Positions 3,714-20,321 are shown, counted from the stretch's first letter. The stretch: DNA of 64,000 nt from an uncultured Gemmatimonadales bacterium (GCA_963695185.1 CAVOGH010000003.1:270499-334498); one strand, 5' to 3'. Made by a program: numbers and translations. Notes: generated by a model from the letters alone, not told the origin.

Positions 3714-4154
3714 GTGCTGCATGAGACGCCCGATGCCCTGCGCCAGCTGGTCGCCGGCAAGAGCCCCGGCTCGCTGGCCCGCGCCGAGGCGCCCGGCAAA
3801 TGGTCGGTGCGCCAGGTGCTGCAGCACCTGGCCGACAGCGAAATCGTCGGTGGGTTCCGCTTCCGCATGGCCATCGCCCAGGACCGGACCACCGTCACCG
3901 GCTACGACCAGGATATCTGGGCCCAGCAGCTCCGCTACCAGGACACCGATCCCGCCGCCGCCATCGCCGACTTCAGCGCCGTCCGCCGCATGAACATGGT
4001 ACTGTTCGATCGTGCCACCCCGGCCGAACTGGCCCGCGCCGTCATCCACGCCGAACGGGGCGAGGAAACCCTGGCCCACATGATCCGGATGTACGCCGGC
4101 CACGACCTGGTGCACCGGCGGCAGATCGAGCGGATCCTGAAGTCGGGCAGCTAG
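3714..4154 (+). CDS. DinB-superfamily (DinB_2-like) metal-dependent protein
   Basis: Motifs ..WSVRQVLQHLADSE.. and C-terminal ..YAGHDLVHRRQIERIL are typical of the DinB four-helix-bundle family. GTG 3714 is the first start after the in-frame TGA 3639-3641. An ATG at 3608 is in another frame, so the 5' end is uncertain (possible indel). Confidence 0.7.
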   Translation: MLHETPDALRQLVAGKSPGSLARAEAPGKWSVRQVLQHLADSEIVGGFRFRMAIAQDRTTVTGYDQDIWAQQLRYQDTDPAAAIADFSAVRRMNMVLFDRATPAELARAVIHAERGEETLAHMIRMYAGHDLVHRRQIERILKSGS

Positions 4155-5476: not shown

Positions 5477-5716
5477 ATGTTCCAACTGACCCGGGATGAG
5501 GCTGCAAACTTGAAGTCACAATTTGTGACCTCAAGTTTGGCGACTCAGGCTGAGGCGGCAATCTTGAAATCACAAACTGTGATCTCAAGTTCTGGCTGGG
5601 GTGGCCAGCGGTTCTCGCCCCGCTATCGGGTTCCGGTGATGAGGGCCGGGGACCCGACCGTTCACCGGCGCTCCCCGGTGAGACGCGCGAGAGCGTCCCT
5701 GGCCTCCGCCACATAG
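5477..5716 (+). pseudogene. ORF6N/KilA-N-like domain protein remnant
   Basis: MFQLTRDEAANLKSQFVTSS..LKSQTVISSSGWGGQRF matches the conserved C-terminal half of ORF6N-domain proteins (FMFQLT.EE..NL[RK]SQ[IF]VTS..WGG.R). The N-terminal half is absent and the LKSQxVxS unit is duplicated. The 3' end runs into the convergent gene. Confidence 0.45.
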
Positions 5717-6681
5717 GGCTGGAGCTCTGGATCGGCGCGCCGCCAGGAATCCACCACATACTGGTAGGACCGGATGGCCGTCTCGCGGTCGCCGAGCCGC
5801 TCGGCGATCCGCCCCTGCTCGAGCCGCGCGAGCACGGCGATCGGGCCGAGAACCATCGTCAGCAGGTGGTCGAGCTGGCTAGCGGCCAGCGTCTCCTGCC
5901 CGCGCGCCGCCAAGAGAGTCGCCTGCTTCAGGACATAGAAGCAGTCGATGCTACTGCACGCGCTGGTGGGCACCGCGCCGAATTGGCGGAGGGCCTCAGT
6001 GGTGTCACCGAGGGCGAGCGCCAGATACGCCGCCGACGCCTGCTCGAGGTAACCGGCCCGGAGCCGGCGCACCGGATCTCCGGCCCGCGCGCCGGCATCC
6101 CGCATGCGGCGACCAAAGAGCGCGAGCGCCGCGGTGTCTTGCTGCATTGTCCACCACCCGAGGCCCTTGAGGCTGCGGGAGGAGCCGTCGCCAAAAGCGA
6201 AACCGGGCTGCAGTGAGGGGGCGAAAGCGCGGGCCGCCTCGTCCCGAGGTATCGCGCGGAGCAGCGCCAGGTCACGGAAGGGGTCCTGGAACCAGGACCA
6301 GGGCGAGAGGGTGGGATCGGCGAGGAGCGCCCGGTTGGTGCGATAGGCCTCCGCCAGATGGCCCCGTCTCGCGAGCGCCATCGCCACGAACTGCAGGCGC
6401 ATCAGGGAATCCACCACCCAGGGAGTGGATTCCCCCTCGCGCATCCGCCGCGCCGCCAGCCGCCGGAACAGCATCACGGCGGTTTCCGCAGAGTCCGGAA
6501 TGTAGATGAATACCTCGATCGCCGCGGTGAACAGCACGCCTGCCGCGGCCGCATCGAGTTGTCCGGCCAGGTCCTTCTCTCGCCGGTCCTCCGGAGTCAG
6601 CAGGAGGCGGCTGGTGAGTCCCAGGGCGGAGCTGGTCACGCCGGGCAGGGCCAGGCGAGTTACCGCTCGCGCGTAGGGCAA
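5662..6681 (-). CDS. Helical-repeat (TPR-like) protein, hypothetical
   Basis: 339-aa Ala/Leu-rich all-helical ORF. It resembles the TPR-like C-terminal regions of multidomain regulators, but no catalytic domain is seen. Its 5' end abuts the pseudogene at 6700, so it may be truncated. Confidence 0.45.
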   Translation of the reverse strand: MPYARAVTRLALPGVTSSALGLTSRLLLTPEDRREKDLAGQLDAAAAGVLFTAAIEVFIYIPDSAETAVMLFRRLAARRMREGESTPWVVDSLMRLQFVAMALARRGHLAEAYRTNRALLADPTLSPWSWFQDPFRDLALLRAIPRDEAARAFAPSLQPGFAFGDGSSRSLKGLGWWTMQQDTAALALFGRRMRDAGARAGDPVRRLRAGYLEQASAAYLALALGDTTEALRQFGAVPTSACSSIDCFYVLKQATLLAARGQETLAASQLDHLLTMVLGPIAVLARLEQGRIAERLGDRETAIRSYQYVVDSWRRADPELQPYVAEARDALARLTGERR

Positions 6682-7646: not shown

Positions 7647-7795
7647 GTCACACGCCACCCGAGGACCCGATGCCGCCTCCCCCAACTCCATCTCGTCCAG
7701 GCCCAGCATCAGGCCGCTAACTCGTTGATCGGCAACCAGATCCATACGTGTACGCGGGGTCGGCAGGACGCCGACTCCACCGAGGCCCGGCCCAC

Positions 7796-8884
7796 ATGAC
7801 AAGGCCCGCCCAGCTCCCCCTGCTCGAGGCCCCGGCCCAGGCCCCGCTGCCGGTGCTCGACACCCGTGCCCGCGGCGCCTCGTTCCACGAGATCCCGGTC
7901 AAGGCGATCCTCAACTCCCCCGCCTCCACCGGCATGGGGTTCTGGTCGCTCAATCCGTACGTGGGCTGCGAGTTCGGCTGCACCTACTGCTACGCTCGTG
8001 AGACCCATAAGTGGGTAGTCGAGCGAGAGACGGCGAAAGGGACGGCTTCCGGCGCGGAGGGTAGCCCTGAGATCGAGTCGCCGAGTCGCCGAGTCGCCGA
8101 GTCGCCCAGCGACGCCTTCGAACGCCGCATCCTGGTCAAGACCTCCGCCGCGGCGGTGCTCAAACGCACCCTCTTTCCCGCCAAGCTCGACGGCTGCACC
8201 CTGGTCATCGGCACCGCCACCGATCCCTACCAGCCCGCCGAACGGCAGTTCCGCCTGACTCGGCAGATCCTCGAGGCGCTGCTCAGCTGGAAGGGGCTGG
8301 CGCTGGGGATCATCACCAAGTCGCCGCTCATCATCCGCGACATCGACCTGCTGGTGCAGCTCAAGGAACGGCACGACCTGTCGGTCAACATCTCCATCGC
8401 CTCCACCGACGCCGCCCTGCTCCGGCGCATCGAGGCCCGCTCGCCGGCGCCCCACGCCCGGCTCCGGGCCCTGTCCCGGCTCACCGATCAAGGCATTCAC
8501 GCGGGGCTGCTCATCGCCCCGGTCCTCCCCGGCATCACCGACAGCCGGGAATCACTGGCCGCCCTCATGGCGGCGGGGAAGGCAGCGGGCGCCCGCTACG
8601 CGGTCGGGTCGGCGCTCCGGCTCGGACCCGCAACCCGGTCCCGCTTCCTTCCTCACCTTGCCCACGAATTCCCGGAGCTGGCCGGCCGCTACGCGCGGCG
8701 CTACGAAAACCGCCAGATGCCGGGACGCGACTATACCGAGGCGCTCTCCGCCCGGATCCGCTCGCTGCAGGCGGAGTACGGCTTCCCCATCCCCGACAGC
8801 CGCCACCGCGAACGGCTGCTCAAGGGCCAGGCGCGGGAAGACGCGGTGCCCGAGGCGGCGGCGCAGTGGTCGCTGGGGTTGTGA
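7796..8884 (+). CDS. Radical SAM protein (SplB/COG1533-like, DNA-repair-photolyase family)
   Basis: CEFGCTYC (CxxxCxxC) cluster motif near the N-terminus, followed by ..ILVKTSAAAVLKR.. and ..ITKSPLIIRDIDLL.. typical of this family. ATG 7796 was chosen (MTRPAQLPLL). It carries an in-frame repeat insertion at 8014-8110. Confidence 0.75.
   Translation: MTRPAQLPLLEAPAQAPLPVLDTRARGASFHEIPVKAILNSPASTGMGFWSLNPYVGCEFGCTYCYARETHKWVVERETAKGTASGAEGSPEIESPSRRVAESPSDAFERRILVKTSAAAVLKRTLFPAKLDGCTLVIGTATDPYQPAERQFRLTRQILEALLSWKGLALGIITKSPLIIRDIDLLVQLKERHDLSVNISIASTDAALLRRIEARSPAPHARLRALSRLTDQGIHAGLLIAPVLPGITDSRESLAALMAAGKAAGARYAVGSALRLGPATRSRFLPHLAHEFPELAGRYARRYENRQMPGRDYTEALSARIRSLQAEYGFPIPDSRHRERLLKGQAREDAVPEAAAQWSLGL
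8014..8110. repeat. Octamer-array element, subfamily A2, in-frame inside the rSAM gene
   Basis: CCGGCGCGGAGGGTAGCCCTGAGATCGAGTCGCCGAGTCGCCGAGTCGCCGAGTCGCCC aligns with 15110-15166 in dnaE2. It encodes ..SPEIESPSRRVAESPSRRVAESPS.. in a loop right after the Fe-S motif. Confidence 0.7.
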
Positions 8885-9022
8885 GCCCCGCCCTGGAGCT
8901 ACAGGCTGCGAAGCCGTGGGCCCCTCCGGGGGCGACCGTTTTGGCAAGGCTGCCTGATATGTGCCGCCAGCCAACGGCAGCGCCCCCGTCGGGGCCCACC
9001 GGCTCCGCAGCCCGCACACACC

Positions 9023-10426
9023 ATGCAGCCACGCCACGTCCTGTTCGTTGACCCGCCGGCCTTCTGCACCACCCTCGAAGGCCTGGTCGCGCCCGCGCTC
9101 CGGGATCGGCCCCTCGTCGTCGCCGCCCCCGGCGCCGACCGCGCCACCGTGCTCGCCCTCTCCCCCGAAGCCCGCGCCGCCGGGATCACCCCCGGCATGG
9201 CGGTGAACCAGGCCAGGAAACGCTGCCCCGATCTCATCGTCCGCCCCCCCAACCCCCGGCTCTACGCCCGCGCCTCCCGCGCCCTGCACCAGATCCTGGC
9301 CCGCTACGCGCCCATCATCGAACCCCACGGCTGGGGCCACGCCTTCCTCGACGTGACCGGCACCGAACGGCTGCTGGGAAAATCGGTCGATATCGCCTGG
9401 AAGATCCACCAGGAATCGCGCGAGCGGCTGCACCTGCCGCTCGCCGTCGGCGTCGCCCAGAACAAGCTGGTGAGTCAGGCGGCGTCGGAGGTGGTCAAGG
9501 GACGACTCGGCGACTCGGCGACTCGGCGACTCGATCTGCTCGAGGTGACTCCGGGGTCCGAAGCAACGTTCCTCGCACCGGAAAGCGTGGCACTGCTCCC
9601 CGACCTCGAGCCCCGCATGCGGGAGCGGCTGGACGACTACCAGCTCGACATCATCGGAGAGATCCAGGCCATCACCGACGACGAGCTGGCCCGGGTGTTC
9701 GGGCTCCCCGGCCGCACCCTCGGCGCCCACGCCCGCGGCATCGACCCCCGGCCGGTGCTGCCGGCGGCGGTCAAGGCGGAGTTCCGCGTCACCCACACCC
9801 TCGGCAACGACAGCAACGACATCGCCCTGCTGCACCGGGTGCTCCGCCACCTGACCGAACGGCTGGGCGCCCGGCTCCGCGCCCGCCACCTCACCGCCCG
9901 ACGGCTCACGGTGCAGATCGCCTACGTGGACTACGCCACCGCCCGTCGCAGCCTGGCGCTGGCCCCCGCCGCCCTCGACGTGGAGCTGCTCGACGCCGCC
10001 CGCCGAGGCCTGGCCCTGGCGCAGCAGCGCACCGTGGCGCTCCGGGCACTGAGCGTGACGGTGGATCGGTTCGTGGAGGAGGATTGTCAGTTGGAGTTGT
10101 TCGGCGGCTCGGCGGCTCGATGGTTCGGCGACTCGGCGACTCGATGGTTCGGCGACTCGGCGACTCGATGGTTCGGCGACTCGGCGACTCGGCGACTCGG
10201 CGACTCGCTAAGTGAAGGGCTCGGCGCGGACCATAGGCTTGCTCTCTCCGAGGAGAGTACCAGTGCTTCATCGTCGGCACCGAACCTCACCTTACGCGAG
10301 TCGCCGAGTCGCCGAGTCGCCGAGCCGCCCAACAACGCGTCCATGCGCCACATCGCCCTCCAGCGTGCCCTCGACCGCATCCGCACCCGCTGGGGGGCCC
10401 GCACCATCGGGGCGGCGACGAGATAG
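9023..10426 (+). CDS. imuB: Y-family DNA polymerase homologue lacking catalytic carboxylates (ImuB-like)
   Basis: Y-family fold motifs are present (VLFVDPPAFCTTLE; IEPHGWGHAFLDVTG; AVGVAQNKLVSQAAS). The position of the SxDEAxLD catalytic Asp-Glu reads GH. QLELF and a C-terminal LDRIRTRWG tail are present. It follows the rSAM gene and lies in the same locus as dnaE2. Two in-frame repeat insertions. Confidence 0.8.
   Translation: MQPRHVLFVDPPAFCTTLEGLVAPALRDRPLVVAAPGADRATVLALSPEARAAGITPGMAVNQARKRCPDLIVRPPNPRLYARASRALHQILARYAPIIEPHGWGHAFLDVTGTERLLGKSVDIAWKIHQESRERLHLPLAVGVAQNKLVSQAASEVVKGRLGDSATRRLDLLEVTPGSEATFLAPESVALLPDLEPRMRERLDDYQLDIIGEIQAITDDELARVFGLPGRTLGAHARGIDPRPVLPAAVKAEFRVTHTLGNDSNDIALLHRVLRHLTERLGARLRARHLTARRLTVQIAYVDYATARRSLALAPAALDVELLDAARRGLALAQQRTVALRALSVTVDRFVEEDCQLELFGGSAARWFGDSATRWFGDSATRWFGDSATRRLGDSLSEGLGADHRLALSEESTSASSSAPNLTLRESPSRRVAEPPNNASMRHIALQRALDRIRTRWGARTIGAATR
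9500..9535. repeat. Short GGCGACTC octamer array, in-frame in imuB
   Basis: GACGACTCGGCGACTCGGCGACTCGGCGACTCGAT encodes ..GRLGDSATRRLD.. between conserved Y-family blocks. Confidence 0.65.
10096..10336. repeat. MITE-like palindromic element, subfamily A1, in-frame in the imuB 3' region, with 3 x 24-bp tandem units
   Basis: TIRs GTTGTTCGGCGGCTCGGCGGCTCG / CGAGTCGCCGAGCCGCCCAACAAC. TCGGCGACTCGATGGTTCGGCGAC is repeated 3x (SATRWFGD x3). The core matches 3454-3589 in reverse complement. The reading frame stays open and the native C-terminus resumes after it. Confidence 0.8.
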
Positions 10427-10472
10427 GACCGATCAGGAACCCGGCTTCACGGCGACACCCGCTCCGCCGGAG

Positions 10473-10862
10473 TCACGCCTCGGCATCGAGACCGTCGGGG
10501 TCCTGCCCCCTCACATACAGGACGGTTGGCCTCGGCTTGACGGTCGGGGACATGATCTCGAGGTACGCCTGTGGATTGATGCCCAGCTCCTGCTCCATCG
10601 GCCCGAAGAGCTTGGCGAAGCCCGGGCTGTCCTCCGGGATCGCAATGACCCCGTACTTGAGGTTCAGGAGCTCGACCAGCAGCACCACCTGGGTGCGAGT
10701 GCCCAGGTCCAGCTTGTACGCCGCAACCTTGCTGACCACCACCCAGGCCACCGCGCGGGTACGATTGCGCACGGTGAGGGTAAAGCCGGTCGCGTCGGCG
10801 GAGATCGTCGGCAGCGGAGGGTTCGGGCCTCGGCCCAGCAGCCGCTCAAGCCATGGCATCAC
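10473..10862 (-). CDS. Hypothetical protein
   Basis: 129-aa ORF with ordinary composition on the strand opposite imuB. No family recognised. Confidence 0.4.
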   Translation of the reverse strand: MMPWLERLLGRGPNPPLPTISADATGFTLTVRNRTRAVAWVVVSKVAAYKLDLGTRTQVVLLVELLNLKYGVIAIPEDSPGFAKLFGPMEQELGINPQAYLEIMSPTVKPRPTVLYVRGQDPDGLDAEA

Positions 10863-10910
10863 GGGAGCCCCCGGGGGTCATCGGTGTCGCACCGCCGCAA
10901 CCGGAATGCC

Positions 10911-11282
10911 TCACACGTGCTGGTCCACCAGGATGGGGTTGCCGTCGGGGTCCAGCGCGGTGAAGCTGGCGGGCCCCGTGGTGGTCTCGTCGGCCTCGGT
11001 GGTGAGCTTCACGCCCTTCGCCTTGAGCTGCCGCTGCAGCTCACGGACGTCGGTGAAGCCGGGGACCAGCTTCGCGTCCTGGTCCCAGCCGGGATTGAAG
11101 GTCAGGATGTTCTTGTCGAACATCCCCTGGAAGAGGCCGATGATATGGTCGCCGTTCTTGAGGATCAGCCACTTCTGGGCGGCATTGCCGCCGAAGACAG
11201 TGAAACCGAACTTCTCGTAGAAGGCCTTGGACGCCGCGATATCCTTGACGGCCAGGCTGATGGAAAACGCGCCGAGTTGCAT
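10911..11282 (-). CDS. VOC/glyoxalase-family protein
   Basis: Internal ATG at 11282 gives a 123-aa protein, [40 protein letters not shown], typical of the glyoxalase/bleomycin-resistance fold. The longer track ORF (to 12083) is an Arg/Pro-rich extension. Confidence 0.7.
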
Positions 11283-11335
11283 GTCGAGTCTCCGGGTGAA
11301 AAGAAGAGGTGCCCGCCTGATCGAGGGCGGGCCGG

Positions 11336-11872
11336 CTACGTGGCGGCGAGGACCTCGGGCTTTCGCTTCCGGCTCAGCAGCCCCGCCGACACCAGCGCAA
11401 ACAGCAGTCCCACCGGCAGCGGCTCGAGAAACGTCAGCGAGATGTTCACCAGCGGATTCTTGTACATCTCCGCGAACTCCGCCATCTCCTGCTTCTTCTC
11501 GGCGAGCTGCGCCTCCGTGGCGCCGGACGCTGCCTCCTTCTCCAGGGCGTAGGCCGAGTATTTCTCCAGGTAGTCGGGAGCGATCTTGCGGTAGACCACC
11601 TGCCAGGTAGCCACGTAACAGACGCACCCGATCAGCATGATCAGGCCACCCACCTGGAAGGCTCGGCCGAACGACACGTTGCCACCCGCCACGTTGTCGC
11701 GGTAGCTCTTCACCCCGACATACACCATCAGGAAGGCGATCACCATCGTGGTGTAGCCGATGATGAGGCCCTTGTCGAAGCCGATCTGGTCGTGGAACGG
11801 GATGGTGAGGAGCATCATCGCCGACAGGATGGCGCCGGCAATCAGTCCGAAGGTCAGCACGATCTTCCGCAT
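11336..11872 (-). CDS. DUF4199-like membrane protein
   Basis: 178 aa with four TM helices and the central SYRDN..GG.(I/V)SF motif typical of DUF4199. Confidence 0.6.
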
Positions 11873-12096
11873 GGCAGCTCCCAGGAGGTTGAGGACGGCC
11901 GATACTACTGCCGGAACGGGCTCCGCGCGTCACCCGAAAGGGTGATTCGGGGGAATTGGCAGGGAAATCATACGAACGGGGGACACAAAACGACCGCAGT
12001 GACCGCCGCCAGGGCTCGGCGCCCGAGACCGGGAGAGGGCGCCGGAGAAGGGGAAAACGGAAACGAGTGGCAGCACGAGGCATCGCAGGCGACCGA

Positions 12097-12186
12097 GACC
12101 GGGGGAGGGTCGGAGGGCGCGTAGGTGCGAGACGGGGACTCGCCCGGCCACCCGCACCTCCAGCGCCTGGAGACCCTCCTCCGGGC
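12097..12186. repeat. Long imperfect palindrome, family C (intergenic copy)
   Basis: GACCGGGGGAGGGTCGGAGGGCGCGTAGGTGCGAGACGG..CCCGCACCTCCAGCGCCTGGAGACCCTCC. The reverse complement of 17190-17265 inside dnaE2 is near-identical over ~75 bp. Confidence 0.75.
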
Positions 12187-12219
12187 GAGGGCGCCGGAGA
12201 AGAGAGGGGAGGACGACCC

Positions 12220-12666
12220 TCAGGGGATGAGCCGCAGTTCCTTGCCCAGCTGCACCGCCTGCGTCCGCCGCCTGGCGCCCAGTTTGTCGAACACTCGGCT
12301 CGAATGGGTCTTGACCGTGTTTTCGCTCACCGACACCCGCTCGGCGATCTCCTTGTTGCTCAGGCCTTCGGCGATCAGCGCCAGGATCTCCAGCTCGCGT
12401 GGCGTGATGCCGAGCGACTCCAGCCTGGCCTCGTCCCGGACAAAGGTGGCCGGCGCCGGCACCAGCACCTCCCGCACCACCACCGTTTCGGCGCGCCGAG
12501 TGAGGCGGAGGCCCAGCCAGATGCCCAGCGCGGCGAACACCGCGGCCACCAGCCCGCCGTAGATCTCCACCGAGTGCTGCACCACCAGCCAGCGGTACTC
12601 GATGAGCCGGAGCCCGGCGATCAGCACCCCGGCGAGGAGTCCGAAGAGGAGCACATGTCGGCGCAT
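12220..12666 (-). CDS. Membrane-anchored LuxR-family HTH transcriptional regulator
   Basis: ATG at 12666 ([19 protein letters not shown]..). Two to three TM helices are followed by the C-terminal LuxR/Ger[48 protein letters not shown]. Confidence 0.75.
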
Positions 12667-12712
12667 GCCCAAGTCTAAGAGCACCTGGCGGAGGGCGGAA
12701 CGGCGCGGCCCG

Positions 12713-13693
12713 CTACCATGTGAGGACGATTTTCCCGAACACCTCGTCGCGCTCCATGACGCCGTGGGCCTCGGCGACGTCGGCAAAGGGCGCGGTGGCG
12801 CCGACGACGGGGCGGAGGCGCCGCGTGCCGCCATCGCCGAATCCCGGCAGCACCTGCGCGCTGAAGGCCGCCACCAGCTCGATGCGCTCTTCCAGCGTCC
12901 GGGTCCGCATCACGCTGCCGATGACCTCCAGCCGCTTGCGGAGAATCGGTTCGAGGCTCAGCTCGGCGGTCGGGCCCTGGAGAAAACCGAGCAGCACCAG
13001 CCGGCCGCGCGGGGCCAGCGCCGCGAGGTTGCCGGCGAAGGCGGGGCCGCCCAGGACGTCGATGATCACATCGAATTCGGCGACTCGGCGACTCGGCGAC
13101 TCGGCGACTCGGCTGCCGAGTTCGAATACTTCGTCGAGCCCGAGCTCCCGGGCGCGTTCGAGCTTGGCGGGCGTCCGGGAGGTGCCCGCCACCGTGGCGC
13201 CGAGCCACTTGGCGAGCTGCACCGCCGCGGTGCCGACGCCGCTGCCGACGGCATGAATCAGCACCCGCTCGCCTGACTTGAGCCTGCCGCGGGTGACCAG
13301 CGCATCCCATGCCGTCAAGAACACCTCGGGGATGGCGGCGGCCTCCGCCAGCTCCATGCCCGGCGGCACCGCCAGCGCCTCGTCCTCGTGCACCACCACG
13401 TATTCGGCGTGGGCGCCGCCGCCCACCAGGCCCATGACCCGGTCCCTGGCGCGCCACCGGGTCACGCCCGACCCCGTCTTCTTCACCACACCCGCATACT
13501 CGAGCCCCGGAATGTCCGCCGGCCAGCCGGATGGCGCGGGATAGCGGCCCTTTCGCTGCAGGATGTCGGCGCGATTCAGGCCCGCGGCCTCAACCCGCAC
13601 CAGGATCTGGTGCGCTGCCGCCTTCGGGGTCGGGACTTCACGGAGTTGCAGGACTTCGGGACCGCCCGCGGCGGTGTTCACAATGGCGCGCAT
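12713..13693 (-). CDS. NADPH:quinone oxidoreductase (zeta-crystallin-like MDR family)
   Basis: MRAIV..GGPEVLQL.EVP.P..GQ(H)ILVRVEAAGLNRADILQRKGRYP..; GSGVGTAAVQLAK nucleotide-binding motif; C-terminal FGKIVLTW. Contains an in-frame octamer array. Confidence 0.8.
   Translation of the reverse strand: MRAIVNTAAGGPEVLQLREVPTPKAAAHQILVRVEAAGLNRADILQRKGRYPAPSGWPADIPGLEYAGVVKKTGSGVTRWRARDRVMGLVGGGAHAEYVVVHEDEALAVPPGMELAEAAAIPEVFLTAWDALVTRGRLKSGERVLIHAVGSGVGTAAVQLAKWLGATVAGTSRTPAKLERARELGLDEVFELGSRVAESPSRRVAEFDVIIDVLGGPAFAGNLAALAPRGRLVLLGFLQGPTAELSLEPILRKRLEVIGSVMRTRTLEERIELVAAFSAQVLPGFGDGGTRRLRPVVGATAPFADVAEAHGVMERDEVFGKIVLTW
13071..13126. repeat. Short hairpin-flanked GGCGACTC array, in-frame in the quinone oxidoreductase gene
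   Basis: TCGAATTCGG-(CGACTCGG)x4-CTGCCGAGTTCGAA encodes ..GSRVAESPSRRVAEF.. on the minus strand, between conserved blocks. Confidence 0.65.
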
Positions 13694-13754
13694 GGGCTGG
13701 TAAGGTATCGCCGGACGCCGGACTTGCGCCCTGCGGGCCCAGGCCGTAGCATAC

Positions 13755-13773
13755 CCGAAGAAATACCGAAGCT
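13755..13773 (-). promoter_or_regulatory. Direct-repeat operator motif, copy 4 (AGCTTCGGTATTTCTTCGG on the minus strand)
   Basis: One mismatch per half-site relative to copies 1-3. It is centred in the 138-bp divergent region between the qor-like gene (start 13693) and tag-dnaE2 (start 13832). No copy of the TTGNCC -35 element is present. Confidence 0.5.
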
Positions 13774-13831
13774 AGAAGGGCTGCCGGGGACCCAGACCGG
13801 CCACACCCCTCACCCTCCATCCTGCGCCCGC

Positions 13832-14363
13832 ATGTCCAGCTACTGCGATATCGCCCCCGGGCACGAATGGCACGGCCCCTACCACGACCGGGAGTACGGC
13901 GTCCCGCTCCGGGAGGACGACGAGCTGTTCGAGCGGCTGATCCTGGAGATCAACCAGGCCGGCCTGTCGTGGCTCACCATCCTCAAGAAAGCGGGAGGGC
14001 TTCCGCCGAGCCTATCACGGCTTCGAGGTGGCGCGGGTGGCGCGCTACGGGGCCCGGGACCGGGCTCGGCTGCTCAAGGACGCCGGGATCATCCGCAACC
14101 GGCTCAAGGTGGAGGCGGCGGTGGCCAACGCGAAGACCGTTCTCTCGCTCCGGAAGAGCCACGGCAGCTTTCATGGCTGGATCGAGGCGCATCACCCGCG
14201 GAGCAAGGGGGAGTGGGTGAAGCTGTTCAAGGGGACGTTCCGGTTCACCGGCGGGGAGATCGTGGGCGAGTTCCTGATGAGCATCGGGGTGCTGCCGGGC
14301 GCGCACCGGGAGTCGTGCCCGGCGTACGCGCGGATCCGGCGGCTCAAGCCGATGTGGATGTAG
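13832..14363 (+). CDS. tag: DNA-3-methyladenine glycosylase I (Tag), interrupted by a 1-nt insertion in this assembly
   Basis: MSSYCDIAPGHEWHGPYHDREYGVP..ELFERLILEINQAGLSWLTILKK, then a shift to ..FEVARVARYGARDRARLLKDAGIIRNRLKVEAAVANA..FTGGEIVGEFLMSIG. Removing one A from AAA 13988-13990 restores ILKKREGFRRAYHGFEV. Confidence 0.8.
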
Positions 14364-14369
14364 GCGTAT

Positions 14370-14448
14370 AGGCGGTTGGGTGGTTGGATCTCAAGGCGAC
14401 CATCCGCGCGGAACACTGAGTTCACACACCAACCGTCTAACCGCCTGT
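14370..14448. repeat. MITE-like element, subfamily B, between tag and dnaE2
   Basis: TIRs AGGCGGTTGGGTGGTTGG / CCAACCGTCTAACCGCCT, with a central TCTCAAGGCGACC core. It starts a few nt after the tag TAG and ends 6 nt before the dnaE2 ATG. Confidence 0.65.
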
Positions 14449-14454
14449 CCGCCC

Positions 14455-17400
14455 ATGTTCACCCACCTCCACGTTCACAGCTGGTTCTCCATGGGAGAGG
14501 GTGTCTCGAGTCCCGAGGCGCTGGCCTCGGCCGCGGTGCGGCGGGGGTTCGGCGCGCTGGCCTGCACCGACACCAACGGGGTGTACGGCGCGGTGGAGTT
14601 CCAGCAGGCGGCCGAGGCCCACGGGCTCAAGCCGATCCTCGGCGCGCACCTGGTGCACGGGACCGAGGAGGCGGTGGCGCTGGCGACAGACGAGCGGGGC
14701 TGGGGCGCGCTCTGCCGGGCGATCACGGCGATTCATTGGGTGGAGGGACGGACGGGTAGACGGACGGACGGGCGGGCGAACGGAGCGACGGGCCGCCGGA
14801 CCGTCCGACCGTCCGACTACCTCTCCACCCTCCTCGCCGCCGACCGCGACGGCCTGCTGCTCCTCTCCCGCGATGCGACGCTGCTGGAGCGGGTGGCCGA
14901 TCTCTCGGGGACGCGGGATCTCTACGCCGAACTCCGGCCCGGCAAGGAGCGCCACGCGGTGGGCCGGGCGGCCCGACGGCTGGGGATTTCGCCGGTGGTG
15001 ACCAACGCGGTGATGTTCGCCAACCCCGAGGAGCACGCGCTGCACCGGCTCCGGGTGGCGATCGGCGACTCGGCGACTCGGCGACTCGGCGATTCGTTCG
15101 CAAGGCCGGGGTCCGGCGCGGAGGGTTACGGTGAGATCGAGGCGCCGAAGCGCCGAGTCGCCGAGCCGACCTCCTGGCTCCGCCCCGGCGCCGACCTCGC
15201 CCGCCACTTCCCCGACTGTCCCGAGGCGATCGGCCGCACCATGGAGCTGGCGGAGCGGTGCGGCTACCGCATTCCCATCGGCCAGCGCACCGTGGCGCCG
15301 AGGATCGCGGCGGCGGAGGAGTCGTTCGCGCGGCTCCGGGCGCTGGCGTACGAGGGCGCGGCCCGGCGCTACGGCACGGTGGCGCCGCTCACCCGGGACC
15401 GGATCGAGCACGAGCTGGCGATCATCGCCCAGAAGAACTTCGCCGACTACTTCCTGGTGGTGCACGATATCGTCCGCCACGGCCCCACCCACTGCGGCCG
15501 GGGCTCGGTGGCCAACTCCATCGTGAGCTACTGTCTGGGCATCACCCACGTGGATCCGCTGGGCGCGGGGCTCCTGTTCGAGCGGTTCCTCAATCCCGAG
15601 CGGAAGGACCCGCCCGACATCGACCTCGACTTTCCCTGGGACGAGCGCGACCAGGTGCTGGCCTGGGTGTTCCAGAAGTATCCCCTGCCCCGCGCGGCGA
15701 TGGTGGCCAACCACAACTGCTTCCGGCTCCGGGGCGCGCTCCGGGAGGTGGCCAAGGTGCACGGCCGCCCGCCGGGAGAGATCCGCGAACTCACCCGCCG
15801 CTTCCCCTGGTTCATGGCGGATGAATCCATGGAAGAGGTCATCGCGCACCACCCCAACTTCAAGGGCCTGGAATTGCCGGCGGTCTGGCAGGACCTGATG
15901 CGGCTGGCGCAGCCGCTGGTGGGGGTGCCCCGGCACCTGTCGCTGCATCCCGGCGGAGTGGTGATCGTGCCGACGGCGCTGACCGACTACGTCCCCATCG
16001 AGCCGGCGGCCAAGCAGCTGGACGGCCATCCCGACCTCACCGTGCCGGTGATCCAGTTCGAGAAGGACGGCACCGAGGACGCGGGGCTGGTGAAGATCGA
16101 CCTGCTGGGGAACCGCTCGCTGGCGGTGATCCGTGACGCGATCGCCGCGGTGGCGGTCAACACCGGCCGGCAGATCGACTACACCTCCGACGATCCCGAC
16201 GACGACGAGGCCACGCACGCGCTCTTCCGCACCGGCCAGACCATGGGCGTCTTCTACACCGAGAGCCCGGCCTCGCGGCTCCTGTGCGCCAAGTCCCGGG
16301 CCGACACCTTCGAGCTGCTGGTGCTCAACACCAGCATCATCCGGCCCGCCTCCAACCGCTACATCCGGGTGTACCTCGAACGGCTGCACGGCGCGCCCTA
16401 CGCGCCGCTCGACCCGTCGCTCCGGGATACCCTCGCCGAGACCTACGGGGTGATGGTCTACCAGGAGGACGTGGTCAATGTGTGCGCCACCTTTGCGGGG
16501 ATGTCGCTCGCCGCGGGCGACGGGCTCAGGAAGGCGCTCTCCAAGAAGCGGCCGGTCAAGGCGCTGGCGTCGTACGTGGAGGATTTCTTCGCCGGCGCCG
16601 CCCGGCTGGGCCGGGACCCGGAGATCGCCAGGCAGGTGTGGGAGATGGTCATGTCCTTTGCGGGCTACAGCTTCTGCAAGGGGCATTCGTGTTCCTATAT
16701 CAAGGTGGCGCAGCACTCCTGCTATCTCCGGGCCCACTACCCGGCGGAGTTCATGGCCGCGGTGCTGGCCAACGGCGGCGGGTTCTATCATCCCTTTGCG
16801 TATGTCTCCGAGGCGATGCGCATGGGGCTCACGGTGCGCCCGCCGGACGTGAATGCCAGCGAGTTCCGGACGACCGGCCGGGGGCGGGAGGTGCGGATCG
16901 GGTTCCAGTTCATCAAGGGGTTGTCGGGGGAGGCGGTCAGGCGGTTGGACGAGGCGACTCGCGGATTCCGGGATCTGGCTCACTTCCGAGTGGAGACCGG
17001 CATCGGGCGGGAGGACCTGCGGCTGCTCATCAAGGTGGGTGCGCTGGACTCGATTGCCCGGGGGATGACCCGGCCGATGCTGCTGTGGGCGGTGGACGCG
17101 GAGTCCCACGCGCCGCCGGCGCCGGCGCCGCTGCTCGACGCTTCGGAGTCGAGTGCTCCGAGCCGTCGAGGCGGGGAAGGGTCTCCGGGCGCTGGAGGTG
17201 CGGGAGCCCGGGTGGGTTCCCGTCTCGCACCTACGCGCCCTCCGACCCTCCCCCGCCTCGACGGCTCGCCTGCCCTCGTTTCTCCGCGGGCGGCAATCCA
17301 ACCGCCCAGCCGCCAAACCGCCCAACCGCCTCACGAATCACCCAATCGCCCAATCGCCCAATCGCCTGCACCTCCCCCCCTCCGCGACTACGACACCGCC

Positions 17401-17802
17401 CGTCGCCGCCGGATCGAGTACCAGCTGCTGGGTTTCACCACCGACTGCCACCCGATGTCGCTCTACCGGGCGGAGCTCAAGCGGTTCCGGATCGTGCCGA
17501 GCACCGAGCTGGGACAGCATGTGGGCCGCACGGTGCTGGCGGCGGGGATGCTCACCACCGCCAAGCCGGTGTCCACCGCCAGGGATGAGCCGATGGAGTT
17601 CGCCACGTTCGACGACGGCCTGGGCCTCATCGAGACGGTGCTCTTTCCCGACGTGTACCGGAAGCGGGCGCACGTGCTGTTCGACCAGGGGCCGTTCATC
17701 TTCCGGGGCAGGGTGGAGGAGGAATTCGGGGCGGTGACGCTCACGATCACCCATCTGGACCGGCTGGAGCGGATGCTGGAGAAGGTGGCCGGACGGCGGT
17801 AG
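14455..17802 (+). CDS. dnaE2: Error-prone DNA polymerase III alpha-subunit paralogue DnaE2
   Basis: ATG 14455 (MFTHLHVHSWFSMGEGVSSPEAL, PHP domain). Pol III alpha core motifs GRGSVANSIVSYCLGIT, DIDLDF, FEKDGTEDAGLVKIDLLGNRSL and C-terminal OB-fold region. Size (about 1,000 aa once the ~280 bp of repeat insertions at 15064-15166, 17160-17267 and 17294-17366 is discounted) and linkage to the imuB-like gene fit DnaE2 rather than DnaE1. Confidence 0.9.
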   Translation: MFTHLHVHSWFSMGEGVSSPEALASAAVRRGFGALACTDTNGVYGAVEFQQAAEAHGLKPILGAHLVHGTEEAVALATDERGWGALCRAITAIHWVEGRTGRRTDGRANGATGRRTVRPSDYLSTLLAADRDGLLLLSRDATLLERVADLSGTRDLYAELRPGKERHAVGRAARRLGISPVVTNAVMFANPEEHALHRLRVAIGDSATRRLGDSFARPGSGAEGYGEIEAPKRRVAEPTSWLRPGADLARHFPDCPEAIGRTMELAERCGYRIPIGQRTVAPRIAAAEESFARLRALAYEGAARRYGTVAPLTRDRIEHELAIIAQKNFADYFLVVHDIVRHGPTHCGRGSVANSIVSYCLGITHVDPLGAGLLFERFLNPERKDPPDIDLDFPWDERDQVLAWVFQKYPLPRAAMVANHNCFRLRGALREVAKVHGRPPGEIRELTRRFPWFMADESMEEVIAHHPNFKGLELPAVWQDLMRLAQPLVGVPRHLSLHPGGVVIVPTALTDYVPIEPAAKQLDGHPDLTVPVIQFEKDGTEDAGLVKIDLLGNRSLAVIRDAIAAVAVNTGRQIDYTSDDPDDDEATHALFRTGQTMGVFYTESPASRLLCAKSRADTFELLVLNTSIIRPASNRYIRVYLERLHGAPYAPLDPSLRDTLAETYGVMVYQEDVVNVCATFAGMSLAAGDGLRKALSKKRPVKALASYVEDFFAGAARLGRDPEIARQVWEMVMSFAGYSFCKGHSCSYIKVAQHSCYLRAHYPAEFMAAVLANGGGFYHPFAYVSEAMRMGLTVRPPDVNASEFRTTGRGREVRIGFQFIKGLSGEAVRRLDEATRGFRDLAHFRVETGIGREDLRLLIKVGALDSIARGMTRPMLLWAVDAESHAPPAPAPLLDASESSAPSRRGGEGSPGAGGAGARVGSRLAPTRPPTLPRLDGSPALVSPRAAIQPPSRQTAQPPHESPNRPIAQSPAPPPLRDYDTARRRRIEYQLLGFTTDCHPMSLYRAELKRFRIVPSTELGQHVGRTVLAAGMLTTAKPVSTARDEPMEFATFDDGLGLIETVLFPDVYRKRAHVLFDQGPFIFRGRVEEEFGAVTLTITHLDRLERMLEKVAGRR
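15064..15166. repeat. Palindromic octamer-array element, subfamily A2, in-frame in dnaE2
   Basis: GGCGACTCGGCGACTCGGCGACTCGGCGATTCG..CCGGCGCGGAGGGTTACGGTGAGATCGAGGCGCCGAAGCGCCGAGTCGCCGAGCC. The arms are inverted copies and the right half aligns with 8050-8108. It encodes GDSATRRLGDSFARPGSGAEGYGEIEAPKRRVAEP. Confidence 0.75.
17160..17267. repeat. 108-bp long palindrome, family C, in-frame in dnaE2
   Basis: A perfect 16-bp outer stem GAGCCGTCGAGGCGGG / CCCGCCTCGACGGCTC extends to ~50-bp imperfect arms. The inner part is near-identical (reverse complement) to 12097-12186. The length is 36 codons, encoding ..[35 protein letters not shown]... Confidence 0.8.
17294..17366. repeat. Octamer array, subfamily B (CCAATCGC/CCAACCGC units), in-frame in dnaE2
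   Basis: CAATCCAACCGCCCAGCCGCCAAACCGCCCAACCGCCTCACGAATCACCCAATCGCCCAATCGCCCAATCGCC is the complement-orientation version of the GGCGATTGGGCGATTGG arrays seen after stop codons. It encodes ..QPPSRQTAQPPHESPNRPIAQSPA... Confidence 0.7.
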
Positions 17803-17841
17803 GATTAGCCCAAGCCATCCTGCCATCACAAAGGACATCTC

Positions 17842-18738
17842 ATGCGATTCTCGACCCTGCTCGCCCTCTCGCTGGCCCTGGCCACCCCGGCCGCCGCTCA
17901 GAACCCCGATTCCGTCACCATCCGGACCATCCCGGTCCGCGGCAACGTCAGCATGCTGATGGGCCAGGGCGGCAACATCGGCGTCTCCACCGGGGCGGAC
18001 GGCAGCTTCGTGATTGACGACGAATATCCGGCGCACACCGCCAAGGTCCAGGCGGCGCTCACCGCGCTCTCCCCGAAGCCCATTCGCTTCGTGATCAACA
18101 CCCACTGGCATGGCGATCATACCGGCGGCAACGCGGCCATGGCCGGCGGCGGGGCGATCATCGTCGCCCACGACAACGTGCGCAAGCGGATGAGCAGCGA
18201 GCAGTTCCTGGAGGCGTTCAAGGCCACGGTGCCCCCCTCACCGGCGGCGGCGCTGCCGGTGGTGACCTTCGCGGACCAGCTCAGCTTCCACTGGAACGGC
18301 GAGGAGATCCGGGTCTTCCACGTGAAGCCCGCCCACACCGACGGCGATGCCATCGTGTATTTCACTCGCTCGAACGTGATCCACACCGGTGACATCTTTT
18401 TCAACGGGATGTACCCGTTCATTGACGGCTCCAGCGGCGGCAGCGTGGCCGGCATGCTCCAGGCGGTGGACCAGGTGCTGGTCCTGGCCAATGCGGACAC
18501 CCGGATCATCCCTGGCCACGGGCCGCTGGGCACCCGGGCCGACCTGGTGAATTTCCGCAGCATGCTGGTCACCGTGACCGAACGGATCAGTGCGCTGATC
18601 CGCCAGCAGAAGACGCTCGACGAGGTGGTGGCCGCCAAGCCCACCGCCGAGTTTGATGCCGCGTGGGGCAAGGGATTCCTCAATCCCGAGTCGTTCATCG
18701 CGATCACCTATAACGTCCTCGGCAAGAGCGCCAGGTGA
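17842..18738 (+). CDS. Secreted MBL-fold metallo-hydrolase
   Basis: Signal peptide MRFSTLLALSLALATPAAAQ. HWHGDH zinc motif, then later His/Asp ligands (..HTDGD.., ..PGHGP..). Confidence 0.8.
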   Translation: MRFSTLLALSLALATPAAAQNPDSVTIRTIPVRGNVSMLMGQGGNIGVSTGADGSFVIDDEYPAHTAKVQAALTALSPKPIRFVINTHWHGDHTGGNAAMAGGGAIIVAHDNVRKRMSSEQFLEAFKATVPPSPAAALPVVTFADQLSFHWNGEEIRVFHVKPAHTDGDAIVYFTRSNVIHTGDIFFNGMYPFIDGSSGGSVAGMLQAVDQVLVLANADTRIIPGHGPLGTRADLVNFRSMLVTVTERISALIRQQKTLDEVVAAKPTAEFDAAWGKGFLNPESFIAITYNVLGKSAR

Positions 18739-20288
18739 TGCGACGTCTCTCCGCCGCCCTCCTCTTCGCCGCGCTCGTGCCGGCGGGGCTCGACGCCCAG
18801 GCCGCGCCGCGCGACGTGGACGCCTACGTCACCCAGGCGCTGAAGCAGTTCGGCCAGCCCGGCGTGGCGATCGCCGTGGTGCAGGACGGCAAGATCCTGT
18901 TCCAGCAGGGGTGGGGCATGCGGCGGGTAGGTGAGGCGGCCCGGGTGGATGCCAACACCCTCTTTCAGGTGGCCTCCAACACCAAGGCGGTCACCGCGGC
19001 GGCGCTCGCCATCCTGGTGAGCGACGGCAAGCTCCGCTGGGATGATCCAGTCACCGACTACCTGCCCTGGTTCCAGCTGGGCGGCGATCCCTACGTCACC
19101 CGGGAGATGACCGTCCGCGATCTGCTGGTGCACCGGAGCGGGCTCTCCCTCGGCGCCGGCGACCTGATGTGGTGGTTCGGCGACTTCAGCCGGGAGGAGA
19201 TCGCCCGGCGGCTCCGCTACATCACCCCCGCCACCAGCTTCCGGAGCCACTACGCCTACGACAACGTGCTGTACGTCGTGGCGGGAGAAGTGGTCAGGGC
19301 CGCCAGCGGCATGGAGTGGGACGACTTCGTCCGCACCCGCATCTTCCAGCCGCTGGGCATGAGCCGCACCCAGACCACGGTGCGGGAGTTCCAGCCCGGC
19401 GACAACATCGCCACCCCGCACGCGCGGGTGAACACGGCGGGCACGATGGCGCCCATCGCCTGGGACACGGTGGACAACATCGGCCCCGGGGGGAGCATCA
19501 ACTCGAGTGTCGCCGACTGGGCCAGGTGGCTCATGGTGCAGCTCGACTCGGGCCGCACCCAGAGCGGCAGCCGGCTCTGGCCGGAGCAGCAGACCCGGAT
19601 CATGTGGAATCCGGAGATCAATATTCCGGTGGGCGTCCCCAGTGCCCCGTTCGCCGCGCTCCGCGCCAATTTCAGCGGCTACGCCCTCGGCTGGGGAGTG
19701 CGGGACTATCGCGGGCTCAAGCTGATGCAGCATACCGGCGGGCTGGCGGGGATGCTGTCGCGGGTGTTCCTGGTGCCGGAGAAGCGGATCGGCGTGGTGG
19801 TGCTGACCAACGGAGAGACCAACGCCTTCAACGCACTCGGCTGGTGGATACTGGACTACGCCCTCAAGGCGCCGAGGACCGACTGGGTGAGCGCCTATGC
19901 TCAAGCGGGGGATGCCACGCTGGCCGCCGATCGCGCCTTCGAGGACTCCGCCAGCGCCGCCCGACGGAGTGATGTGGGCCCCTCGCTCCCGCTCAGCGCG
20001 CTGGCGGGTCGGTACAGCGACGCCTGGTACGGCGAGGTGACCCTGGCCGAGGCAGGCGGGCACCTGGTCCTGACGTGGAGCCGCTCACCCGGCCTGACGG
20101 CGGACCTGGAGCACTGGCAGTACGACACCTTCCGGGCCCGGATGCGGGTGCCGTTCGCGGCGGATGCGTTCGTCACCTTCCAGCTCAAGCACGACGGCAC
20201 GATAGACCGGATGCTGATGGTGCCGGTGCTGCCGTCCACCGACTTCAGCTTCAACTATCAGGACCTGGTGTTCCGGCCGGTGCGGTGA
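18735..20288 (+). CDS. Secreted serine hydrolase (class C beta-lactamase/penicillin-binding-protein family) with C-terminal lipocalin-like domain
   Basis: Signal peptide and the SxxK motif (VASNTKAVTAAA). YAYDN (YxN) motif. The C-terminal ~100 aa resemble DUF3471. The start overlaps the upstream stop (GTGATG). Confidence 0.75.
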   Translation: MMRRLSAALLFAALVPAGLDAQAAPRDVDAYVTQALKQFGQPGVAIAVVQDGKILFQQGWGMRRVGEAARVDANTLFQVASNTKAVTAAALAILVSDGKLRWDDPVTDYLPWFQLGGDPYVTREMTVRDLLVHRSGLSLGAGDLMWWFGDFSREEIARRLRYITPATSFRSHYAYDNVLYVVAGEVVRAASGMEWDDFVRTRIFQPLGMSRTQTTVREFQPGDNIATPHARVNTAGTMAPIAWDTVDNIGPGGSINSSVADWARWLMVQLDSGRTQSGSRLWPEQQTRIMWNPEINIPVGVPSAPFAALRANFSGYALGWGVRDYRGLKLMQHTGGLAGMLSRVFLVPEKRIGVVVLTNGETNAFNALGWWILDYALKAPRTDWVSAYAQAGDATLAADRAFEDSASAARRSDVGPSLPLSALAGRYSDAWYGEVTLAEAGGHLVLTWSRSPGLTADLEHWQYDTFRARMRVPFAADAFVTFQLKHDGTIDRMLMVPVLPSTDFSFNYQDLVFRPVR

Positions 20289-20321
20289 GGTGGTAGGCGA
20301 TTGGGCGATTGGGTGGTGAGG
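20289..20321. repeat. Octamer array, subfamily B, after a stop codon
   Basis: TGA is followed directly by GGTGGTAGGCGATTGGGCGATTGGGTGGTGAGG. Confidence 0.55.

Follow-up and report, generated by a model that had tools for sequence, protein, structure and literature searches.

Paired palindromes at the dnaE2 locus

The DNA analysed here is a 64,000-nt stretch from an uncultured Gemmatimonadales bacterium (GCA_963695185.1 CAVOGH010000003.1:270499-334498), the whole of which is referred to as the window, and its subject is a palindrome within dnaE2, the gene of an error-prone polymerase, together with an inverted counterpart of that palindrome 5 kb upstream. The G+C content of the window is 69%, and the best matches of DnaE2 and the neighbouring proteins are Gemmatimonadales proteins. 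A radical SAM (rSAM) gene (7748-8884, + strand) and a gene for an ImuB-like Y-family protein (9023-10426, + strand) are followed by four genes on the - strand, encoding a glyoxalase (10911-about 11330), a DUF4199 protein (11336-11872), a membrane-anchored GerE/LuxR-type protein of 148 residues (12220-12666) and a Zn-dependent alcohol dehydrogenase (ADH; 12713-13693). The + strand then carries a frameshifted tag gene (about 13832-14360) and the dnaE2 coding sequence (14455-17802), which comprises PHP, Pol3 alpha, finger, HhH, linker and OB-fold regions.

The palindrome in dnaE2 (17159-17268) consists of a perfect outer stem of 18 bp (17159-17176 / 17251-17268), imperfect inner arms and an 8-bp apical stem, and its local arms (17159-17192 / 17235-17268) are 88% complementary over 34 nt. 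The near-perfect palindrome with a 16-bp stem that was described in the initial annotation is therefore real, its 16 bp lying within the 18-bp stem. The further description of the element as exactly 36 codons holds only for its length, since 108 nt are divisible by 3 but the element starts at codon position 3 and does not comprise discrete codons. The reading frame of dnaE2 is uninterrupted across the palindrome. Folded as RNA, a 131-nt segment of dnaE2 has a predicted energy of -101.5 kcal/mol on the + strand (z = -9.5) and -104 kcal/mol on the - strand (z = -10.0), and folded as DNA it has a predicted energy of -57.7 kcal/mol (z = -9.3). The sequences flanking the element, GAGGC and GCCTC, are inverted rather than direct, and the dnaE2 copy thus lacks a target-site duplication. 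The repeat array that had been noticed downstream of the palindrome is also present, as an 8-mer tandem array (CCAACCGC / CCAATCGC) at 17298-17366 on the + strand.

The second palindrome (12088-12202, with a core at 12100-12183) lies in a 347-nt spacer (11873-12219) between the stop of the LuxR/GerE-type gene (12220) and the start of the DUF4199 gene (11872), both of which are on the - strand. Its RNA fold is weaker than that of the dnaE2 copy, at -76.2 kcal/mol (z = -3.6) on the + strand and -67.1 kcal/mol (z = -1.7) on the - strand, and predicted folding thus bears out the hairpin-forming capacity proposed for both sites. The halves of a 33-nt unit found at 12018-12050 are repeated at 12088-12103 and 12186-12202, on either side of the hairpin core, and CCGGG is present on each side of the core, although CCGG is self-complementary and belongs to the stem.

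The two palindromes are reverse-complement twins, as had been claimed. The inverted match between 12100-12183 and 17172-17255 extends over 84 nt with 90% complementarity, and blastn aligns 78 nt at 92% (E = 4e-26) and finds no third copy in the window. A gapped local alignment stretches the homology to 17172-17279 against 12183-12075, overshooting the hairpin by 24 nt on the right side only, so that the ends of the tract do not match the ends of the hairpin. The 8 mismatches in the 84-nt match are unevenly placed. Three of them (17175, 17177 and 17187) fall within the first 16 nt and are all common to the dnaE2 gene of L003, the closest of the syntenic loci described below, which indicates that the left end (17172-17187, likewise common to L003) is pre-existing dnaE2 sequence and not copy; the copied part begins at about 17188. 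The other five are clustered within 14 nt at the apex (17205-17218), where four of them create base pairs and the changes jointly yield the 8-bp apical stem. The remaining 54 nt have no mismatch to the upstream sequence, and the longest perfect identity is 37 nt (Fisher p = 0.01 for mismatches at the left end versus the rest). The right outer arm departs from the flank of the upstream copy exactly where it must in order to complement the ancestral left arm perfectly. At the left junction, GGGTCTCC(G/A)GGC is common to the recipient and the donor, with the last recipient-specific base at 17187 and the first base of the insert at 17191.

The palindrome lies between the HhH and OB domains of DnaE2, in agreement with its initial placement in a linker before the OB fold. 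Pfam places HHH_6 at residues 816-893 of a 1140-residue open reading frame (ORF), and the linker occupies residues 879-975 of the 1115-residue protein (17089-17379, + strand). Linker length ranges from 12 to 65 residues (median 35) in 93 Gemmatimonadota orthologues and is 97 residues in the window. An AlphaFold model of the last 270 residues of DnaE2, made with 72 sequences (mean predicted local distance difference test score, pLDDT, 76.7), assigns the palindrome-encoded residues pLDDT values of 41-50 and no secondary structure, and the linker that bears the palindrome is thus predicted to be disordered. The C-terminal domain is modeled at pLDDT 88-98 and matches OB folds, among them those of M. 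tuberculosis DnaE1 (7pu7) and PolC.

Comparison with three close syntenic loci, L003 (GCA_964449145.1; DnaE2 85-89% identical), L004 (84%) and L007 (about 81-83%), defines the difference more exactly. The actual indel relative to L003, the nearest orthologue, is a segment of 141 nt (17191-17331, + strand; 47 codons, phase 0) that is absent from L003 dnaE2 and includes the first half of the 8-mer array. L003 retains the left arm GAGCCGTCGAGGCGGGGAAGAGTCTCCGGGC, L004 has neither copy, and the linker of L007 has CCGAGCCGTCGA only, from which it follows that the left arm predates the insert. The L007 linker was not counted as a homologous palindrome, having only the outer left-arm motif and a fold of z = -0.9. 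The G+C content at third codon positions (GC3) of the 141-nt insert is 64%, compared with 90% for dnaE2 and 93% for the core of the gene. Conservation of the segment as protein in orthologues had been named beforehand as grounds for refuting the initial interpretation, and it is not seen: the palindrome segment is not found in dnaE2 of any orthologue examined, and the allele is carried by one assembly only, with P0001 as the sole 100% match.

The upstream hairpin has a wider distribution. L003 carries it with a core 83/84 identical to that of the window (12100-12183 in the window, 720-810 in L003), whereas the left flank differs at 14/100 positions and neighbouring coding DNA is 82-91% identical. 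Conservation of the core to this degree implies a constraint on the element at the sequence level. Three other loci, L013, L014 and L015, share the LuxR-to-DUF4199 gene pair with spacers of ~95-150 nt, and the hairpin is not found in these spacers, indicating that the upstream copy was likewise gained by insertion and belongs only to the clade of the window and L003. For the same reason, the possibility that the upstream hairpin is an ancient conserved regulatory element was rejected.

Searches for further copies were uniformly negative. Neither blastn nor a profile hidden Markov model finds another copy in the window or in ~250 kb of related loci, and GTAGGTGCGAGAC, with up to 2 mismatches allowed, occurs in the 64 kb at the two known sites only. 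A 20-mer spanning the single site that varies in L003 gives only two chance matches of 21-22 nt among 185,579 species genomes, a collection scanned without the source genome, and an invariant 19-mer gives only two chance matches of 20 nt in JGI metagenomes. No match is obtained in a 19-mer scan of viral contigs or in a search of a plasmid database with the palindrome. Matches in Rfam are limited to sub-threshold microRNA hairpins, which are chance matches generic to long hairpins, and the signature of an intrinsic terminator is not found at either hairpin.

Origin of the dnaE2 copy

On balance, the dnaE2 palindrome is likely to be a lineage-specific, in-frame insert of non-coding origin, copied in inverted orientation from the older upstream hairpin into a disordered linker of variable length. 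A local templated copy, arising by template switching followed by perfecting of the palindrome, is favoured over transposition on the basis of the sequence comparisons, because the tract ends differ from the hairpin ends and there is no target duplication, and because of the mismatch pattern, the perfected right arm, the non-coding GC3 of the insert and the failure to find another copy. Published work documents both the origin of hairpins by template switching and their perfecting (PMC8794818, PMC7202029, PMC8604942), and the present case has an inverted donor nearby (5 kb) in both the window and L003, a product that is absent from dnaE2 of L003, L004 and L007, microhomology at the left junction, and clustered changes that raise the complementarity of the arms.

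We infer a template-switch mechanism of three steps. A nascent strand would have switched template between strands during replication or repair, leaving dnaE2 at the microhomology GGGTCTCC.GGC (17180-17190), after which it would have copied ~90 nt from the upstream hairpin and the adjoining flank. A fold-back (quasipalindrome) correction would then have rewritten the new right arm as the perfect complement of the pre-existing left arm, making the 18-bp outer stem and remodelling the apex to an 8-bp stem. The perfecting of the right arm is the signature of quasipalindrome correction. The 47 extra residues would be tolerated because the linker is unconstrained: the ORF is intact, pLDDT in the inserted region is <50, and the linker varies among the 93 orthologues.

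Several points weigh against this reading. The polarity of the insertion depends on one sister genome, and an ancestral insertion followed by partial deletion in L003 is a doubtful alternative that is taken up below. The donor core is itself conserved (1/84 between the window and L003), so that zero differences between copy and donor are only weakly diagnostic of recency; the probability of zero differences if only the copy evolves is about 0.07. The proposed switch accounts neither for the right junction nor for the origin of 17280-17297, and 5 kb is a long distance for a template switch. The searches covered 64 kb of the source genome, elsewhere in which more copies may exist, and a single assembly supports the allele.

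An unlikely alternative, although the strongest of those considered, is that a small mobile palindrome resembling a repetitive extragenic palindrome (REP), a MITE or a Rickettsia palindromic element (RPE) was inserted twice, hopping locally; not being autonomous, it would depend on a transposase supplied in trans from another locus. Compared with L013, L014 and L015, the upstream site too has gained an insertion, which splits the 33-nt unit, and the CCGGG brackets might represent a 5-bp duplication. Ahead of the inner stem is a GTAG (12121-12124), recalling GTAG-type REPs, with its complement at 17231-17234, although in a structure of 84-110 nt a lone tetranucleotide could be there by chance. 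There is also precedent. Di Nocera et al. (2013; PMC3733652) described palindromic repeats that lie in frame within repair genes, DnaE2 among them, and considered the bias to replication and repair genes difficult to attribute to chance; the classic palindromes tolerated in frame within genes are the RPEs (reviewed in PMC10969869). Nevertheless, the 64 kb contain only two copies, no further one was found in ~250 kb of related loci or by the public scans, and the dnaE2 copy has no direct target duplication. Moreover, the tract is asymmetric to the hairpin, its first 16 nt are ancestral dnaE2 sequence, and local sequence, not the element, supplies the outer stem of the dnaE2 copy.

The element differs from each of the corresponding families. 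The intragenic REPs (PMC3733652) resemble it as in-frame palindromes in genes for error-prone polymerases and repair proteins, probably in flexible linkers, but REPs are units of 20-40 bp with a GTAG/CGTC tag, whose copies number in the tens to hundreds and which often accompany RAYTs (Y1 transposases), whereas the dnaE2 element is ~110 bp long, has two detectable copies in 64 kb, and has an outer stem of local sequence and a tract that does not match the element ends. The RPEs (PMC10969869) are likewise in-frame palindromic inserts, of 100-150 bp, that add a peptide to a tolerant host protein; however, they are multi-copy, encode a conserved peptide and belong to an AT-rich obligate intracellular genus, whereas for the dnaE2 element neither a family nor a conserved peptide was found, the second copy being intergenic and no others having been detected. 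MITEs resemble it in being small, non-coding, hairpin-capable elements at more than one site, here two, but no terminal inverted repeats are shared past the hairpin, the dnaE2 site has no duplication, and neither a family nor a parent insertion sequence was found. On copy number, termini and target duplication the dnaE2 element therefore fails membership of the REPs, MITEs and RPEs, and is best classed as a two-copy, locally templated palindromic insert. A further likeness is to quasipalindrome and template-switch mutagenesis (PMC7202029, PMC8794818, PMC8604942), in which a nearby inverted donor, junction microhomology, clustered multi-nucleotide changes that improve stems, and homogenised arms are all seen. 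Documented switches usually span tens to hundreds of nt, whereas the dnaE2 case would combine an inter-strand switch of ~5 kb with a fold-back, as judged from comparative sequence.

Less probable than a mobile element is the alternative that the palindrome was ancestral to the window and L003 and that 141 nt were later deleted in L003, long palindromes being unstable. The retention of the left arm in L003, including 18 nt that resemble the element end (15/18 in the window and 14/18 in L003), would be accounted for, and the length of the segment is a multiple of 3, as the frame requires. Against this, the three left-end differences are common to the window and L003 and the rest of the match is identical to the donor outside the apex (the Fisher test given above), no direct repeat is present at the putative deletion junction, and GC3 shows no amelioration towards coding composition.

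On the template-switch reading, the insert provides a clean natural example of non-coding DNA that was template-switched into a gene and perfected to a long hairpin, adding 47 residues. Taken alone, the palindrome is a tolerated insert in a floppy linker and a curiosity rather than a demonstrated switch. The most useful lead is the wider enrichment that hairpins and arrays show in this SOS-type mutagenesis cassette in many Gemmatimonadales, an enrichment of about 10-fold over flanking genes, which echoes the unexplained published preference of palindromic repeats for replication and repair genes and for which tolerance, local mutational bias or regulation are possible causes.

Cassette-wide hairpins and the remaining explanations

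The cassette, taken as rSAM-imuB-ADH-tag-dnaE2 and compared with the flanking genes, is rich in short tandem arrays. Over nine loci, 79 arrays of 7-8-nt units occur in 63 kb of cassette as against 20 in 156 kb of flanks, an enrichment of 9.8-fold (binomial p about 1e-25; the arrays, however, are not independent). The arrays mostly have ~4 copies and often form inverted pairs that make hairpins of 60-160 nt. They span 8074-20313 in the window, 2991-10698 in L004, 3070-12906 in L008, 101-7561 in L009, 6040-13870 in L010 and 4792-15294 in L013; L013 has the same cassette pattern, and most of the Gemmatimonadales loci examined show the enrichment, whereas L011 and L012 have few arrays. Their units, which include GGCGACTC, GGCGATTG, GGCGGTTG, GGGAAGC, GGGAACA, GTACCGC and GTCGGTAG, are lineage-specific, whereas their positions recur: the PHP loop, the second loop, the region after HhH, the linker, the tag-dnaE2 spacer and the imuB tail. 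The heptameric G-rich simple sequence repeats GGGNATC of Xanthomonas and Nostoc (PMC4692102) can be likened to these arrays, not to the palindrome, in having units of 7-8 nt and mostly ~4 copies, and GGGAAGC and GGGCGATT fit the G-quadruplex pattern. The GGGNATC repeats are, however, genome-wide and under-represented in coding sequence, whereas the cassette arrays are concentrated in one cassette, where they often lie within coding loops and form inverted pairs.

The eight longest local inverted-repeat pairs in the window, equivalent to six hairpins, all lie within 10.16-17.27 kb, and four of the six cassette hairpins fold at z values of -3.1 to -5.7. The first of these four (10171-10333, z = -5.7) lies in the C-terminal tail of imuB and is formed by (GGCGACTC)n arrays in inverted orientation. 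The second (14354-14462, z = -3.5) is built of GGCGGTTG-type repeats and extends across the tag-dnaE2 spacer to include the start codon of dnaE2 (14455), where it could occlude the initiation of translation. The third is an insert in the PHP-domain loop of dnaE2 (14738-14830, z = -3.8), and the fourth, composed of inverted 8-mer arrays, lies in the second variable loop of dnaE2 (15066-15168, z = -3.1). Unrelated palindromes occur in the same DnaE2 linker in at least four other Gemmatimonadales lineages. Those of L008 (z = -7.4) and L009 (z = -7.8) are strong and unrelated, the L010 linker has two unrelated strong palindromes (z = -6.4 and -7.2), and the L013 linker has an array-built insert encoding a mirror peptide. 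It is somewhat probable, on this evidence, that the dnaE2 insertion is one case of a general property of the cassette, whose loops, linkers and spacers gain locally spreading hairpin repeats. The cassette was also considered as a recently acquired island, and this was rejected, its G+C content being ordinary and its synteny being kept across lineages.

Some further details of individual arrays may be recorded here. The tail of the imuB ORF (10099-10333) contains ~13 copies of the 8-mer arranged as a 24-nt (8-codon) super-repeat and then an inverted array, and together these form the longest hairpin in the window. In L004 a similar hairpin (8144-8246) occupies the same position as the start-codon hairpin of the window. 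The dnaE2 gene of L013 changes frame within an expanded 8-mer array (5611-5736; 11 copies, as against 4 in the other arm), and gene calling splits it in two. The rSAM gene of L008 changes frame at an 8-mer array (4014-4105), and L008 imuB has three more frameshifts, none at arrays. The two frame changes at arrays could represent phase-off alleles, pseudogenes or errors of metagenome assembly, and the imuB frameshifts of L008 may be assembly errors.

The recurrence of hairpins at set positions in the cassette across many lineages, including over the dnaE2 start codon, is one argument for selection of the dnaE2 hairpin, and likewise of the other cassette hairpins, for a regulatory role in cis that would restrict expression of the mutagenic polymerase or set its timing. 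Such a structure could serve as a site for RNase III or decay, a pause for the ribosome or RNA polymerase, or a barrier to replication. Also in favour are the extreme stability of the stem, the apex changes that create pairs, and the donor core, which differs at 1/84 positions between the window and L003 compared with 14/100 in the left flank. However, there is no strand asymmetry, G-U signature, terminator tail or Rfam family, and nothing indicates an RNA-specific structure because both strands fold equally well. The hairpin sequences are unrelated between lineages and almost none are found in L011 and L012, and pair-creating multi-nucleotide changes are also a signature of template switching without selection. 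Regulation of this kind is therefore improbable; an effect on the expression of dnaE2 or the stability of its DNA is possible, and the originally suggested effect on replication, transcription or mRNA stability of dnaE2 is speculation.

It is similarly improbable, and is offered tentatively, that the palindrome is one footprint of a process specific to the cassette, by which the mutasome cassette, and not its neighbours, gains locally copied hairpins and 7-8-nt arrays. Such a process may take either of two forms. Newly made error-prone polymerase, prone to slippage and switching, may act preferentially near its own locus and leave a mutational footprint in cis; alternatively, the arrays may be contingency elements that switch the mutator off and on. 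The unit lengths are not multiples of 3, so that gain or loss of one unit shifts the frame of imuB or dnaE2. The frame changes at arrays in L013 dnaE2 and L008 rSAM would be in keeping with this, although both loci come from metagenome assemblies.

Two explanations can be set aside as highly improbable. The inverted copies, as 84-nt repeats at 90% identity with a 37-nt perfect block, might be a substrate for inversion of 12.1-17.2 kb acting as a switch, as first suggested, but one repeat lies inside dnaE2, and inversion would cut the gene at about codon 906/1115 and sever the OB-fold domain from the polymerase instead of re-orienting tag-dnaE2 relative to rSAM-imuB; in addition, no recombinase family is matched among the Pfam-scanned ORFs at 5.7-20.3 kb, L003 (with one full copy only) and L013 are collinear with the window, no relative being otherwise arranged, and the repeat pair is known from one genome only. 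That the palindrome is an assembly artefact is equally hard to credit: it is carried by one assembly only, but the reading frame is kept with the downstream OB domain intact, and the arms are imperfect with an interior derived from 5 kb away at 90%, unlike fold-back chimeras.

Neighbouring genes

The tag gene, which encodes 3-methyladenine glycosylase I, is split between two reading frames near 13986-14002 in the window and is intact in L003, L004 and L009; the window copy is either a pseudogene or the product of a sequencing error. A search of the literature for repeats in the cassette, or for a LexA box in Gemmatimonadetes, yielded nothing relevant.

The 148-residue GerE/LuxR-type protein is unusually conserved, with 84-91% identity over its best 120 matches, among which those with source names are from Gemmatimonadales or Gemmatimonadaceae. 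Its gene lies between ADH and imuB, within the mutagenesis cassette, in the window, L003 and L013. A perfect palindrome, TCACCCnnnnGGGTGA, occurs once per locus in the window (11930-11945), L003 (558-573) and L013 (10525-10540), and likewise once each in L014 (1914-1929) and L015 (10496-10511). In every case the small LuxR/GerE-type gene lies on one side of it and the DUF4199 gene on the other, and a TAGAAT/TAGTAT-like box follows; the palindrome is a candidate operator of the adjacent regulator.

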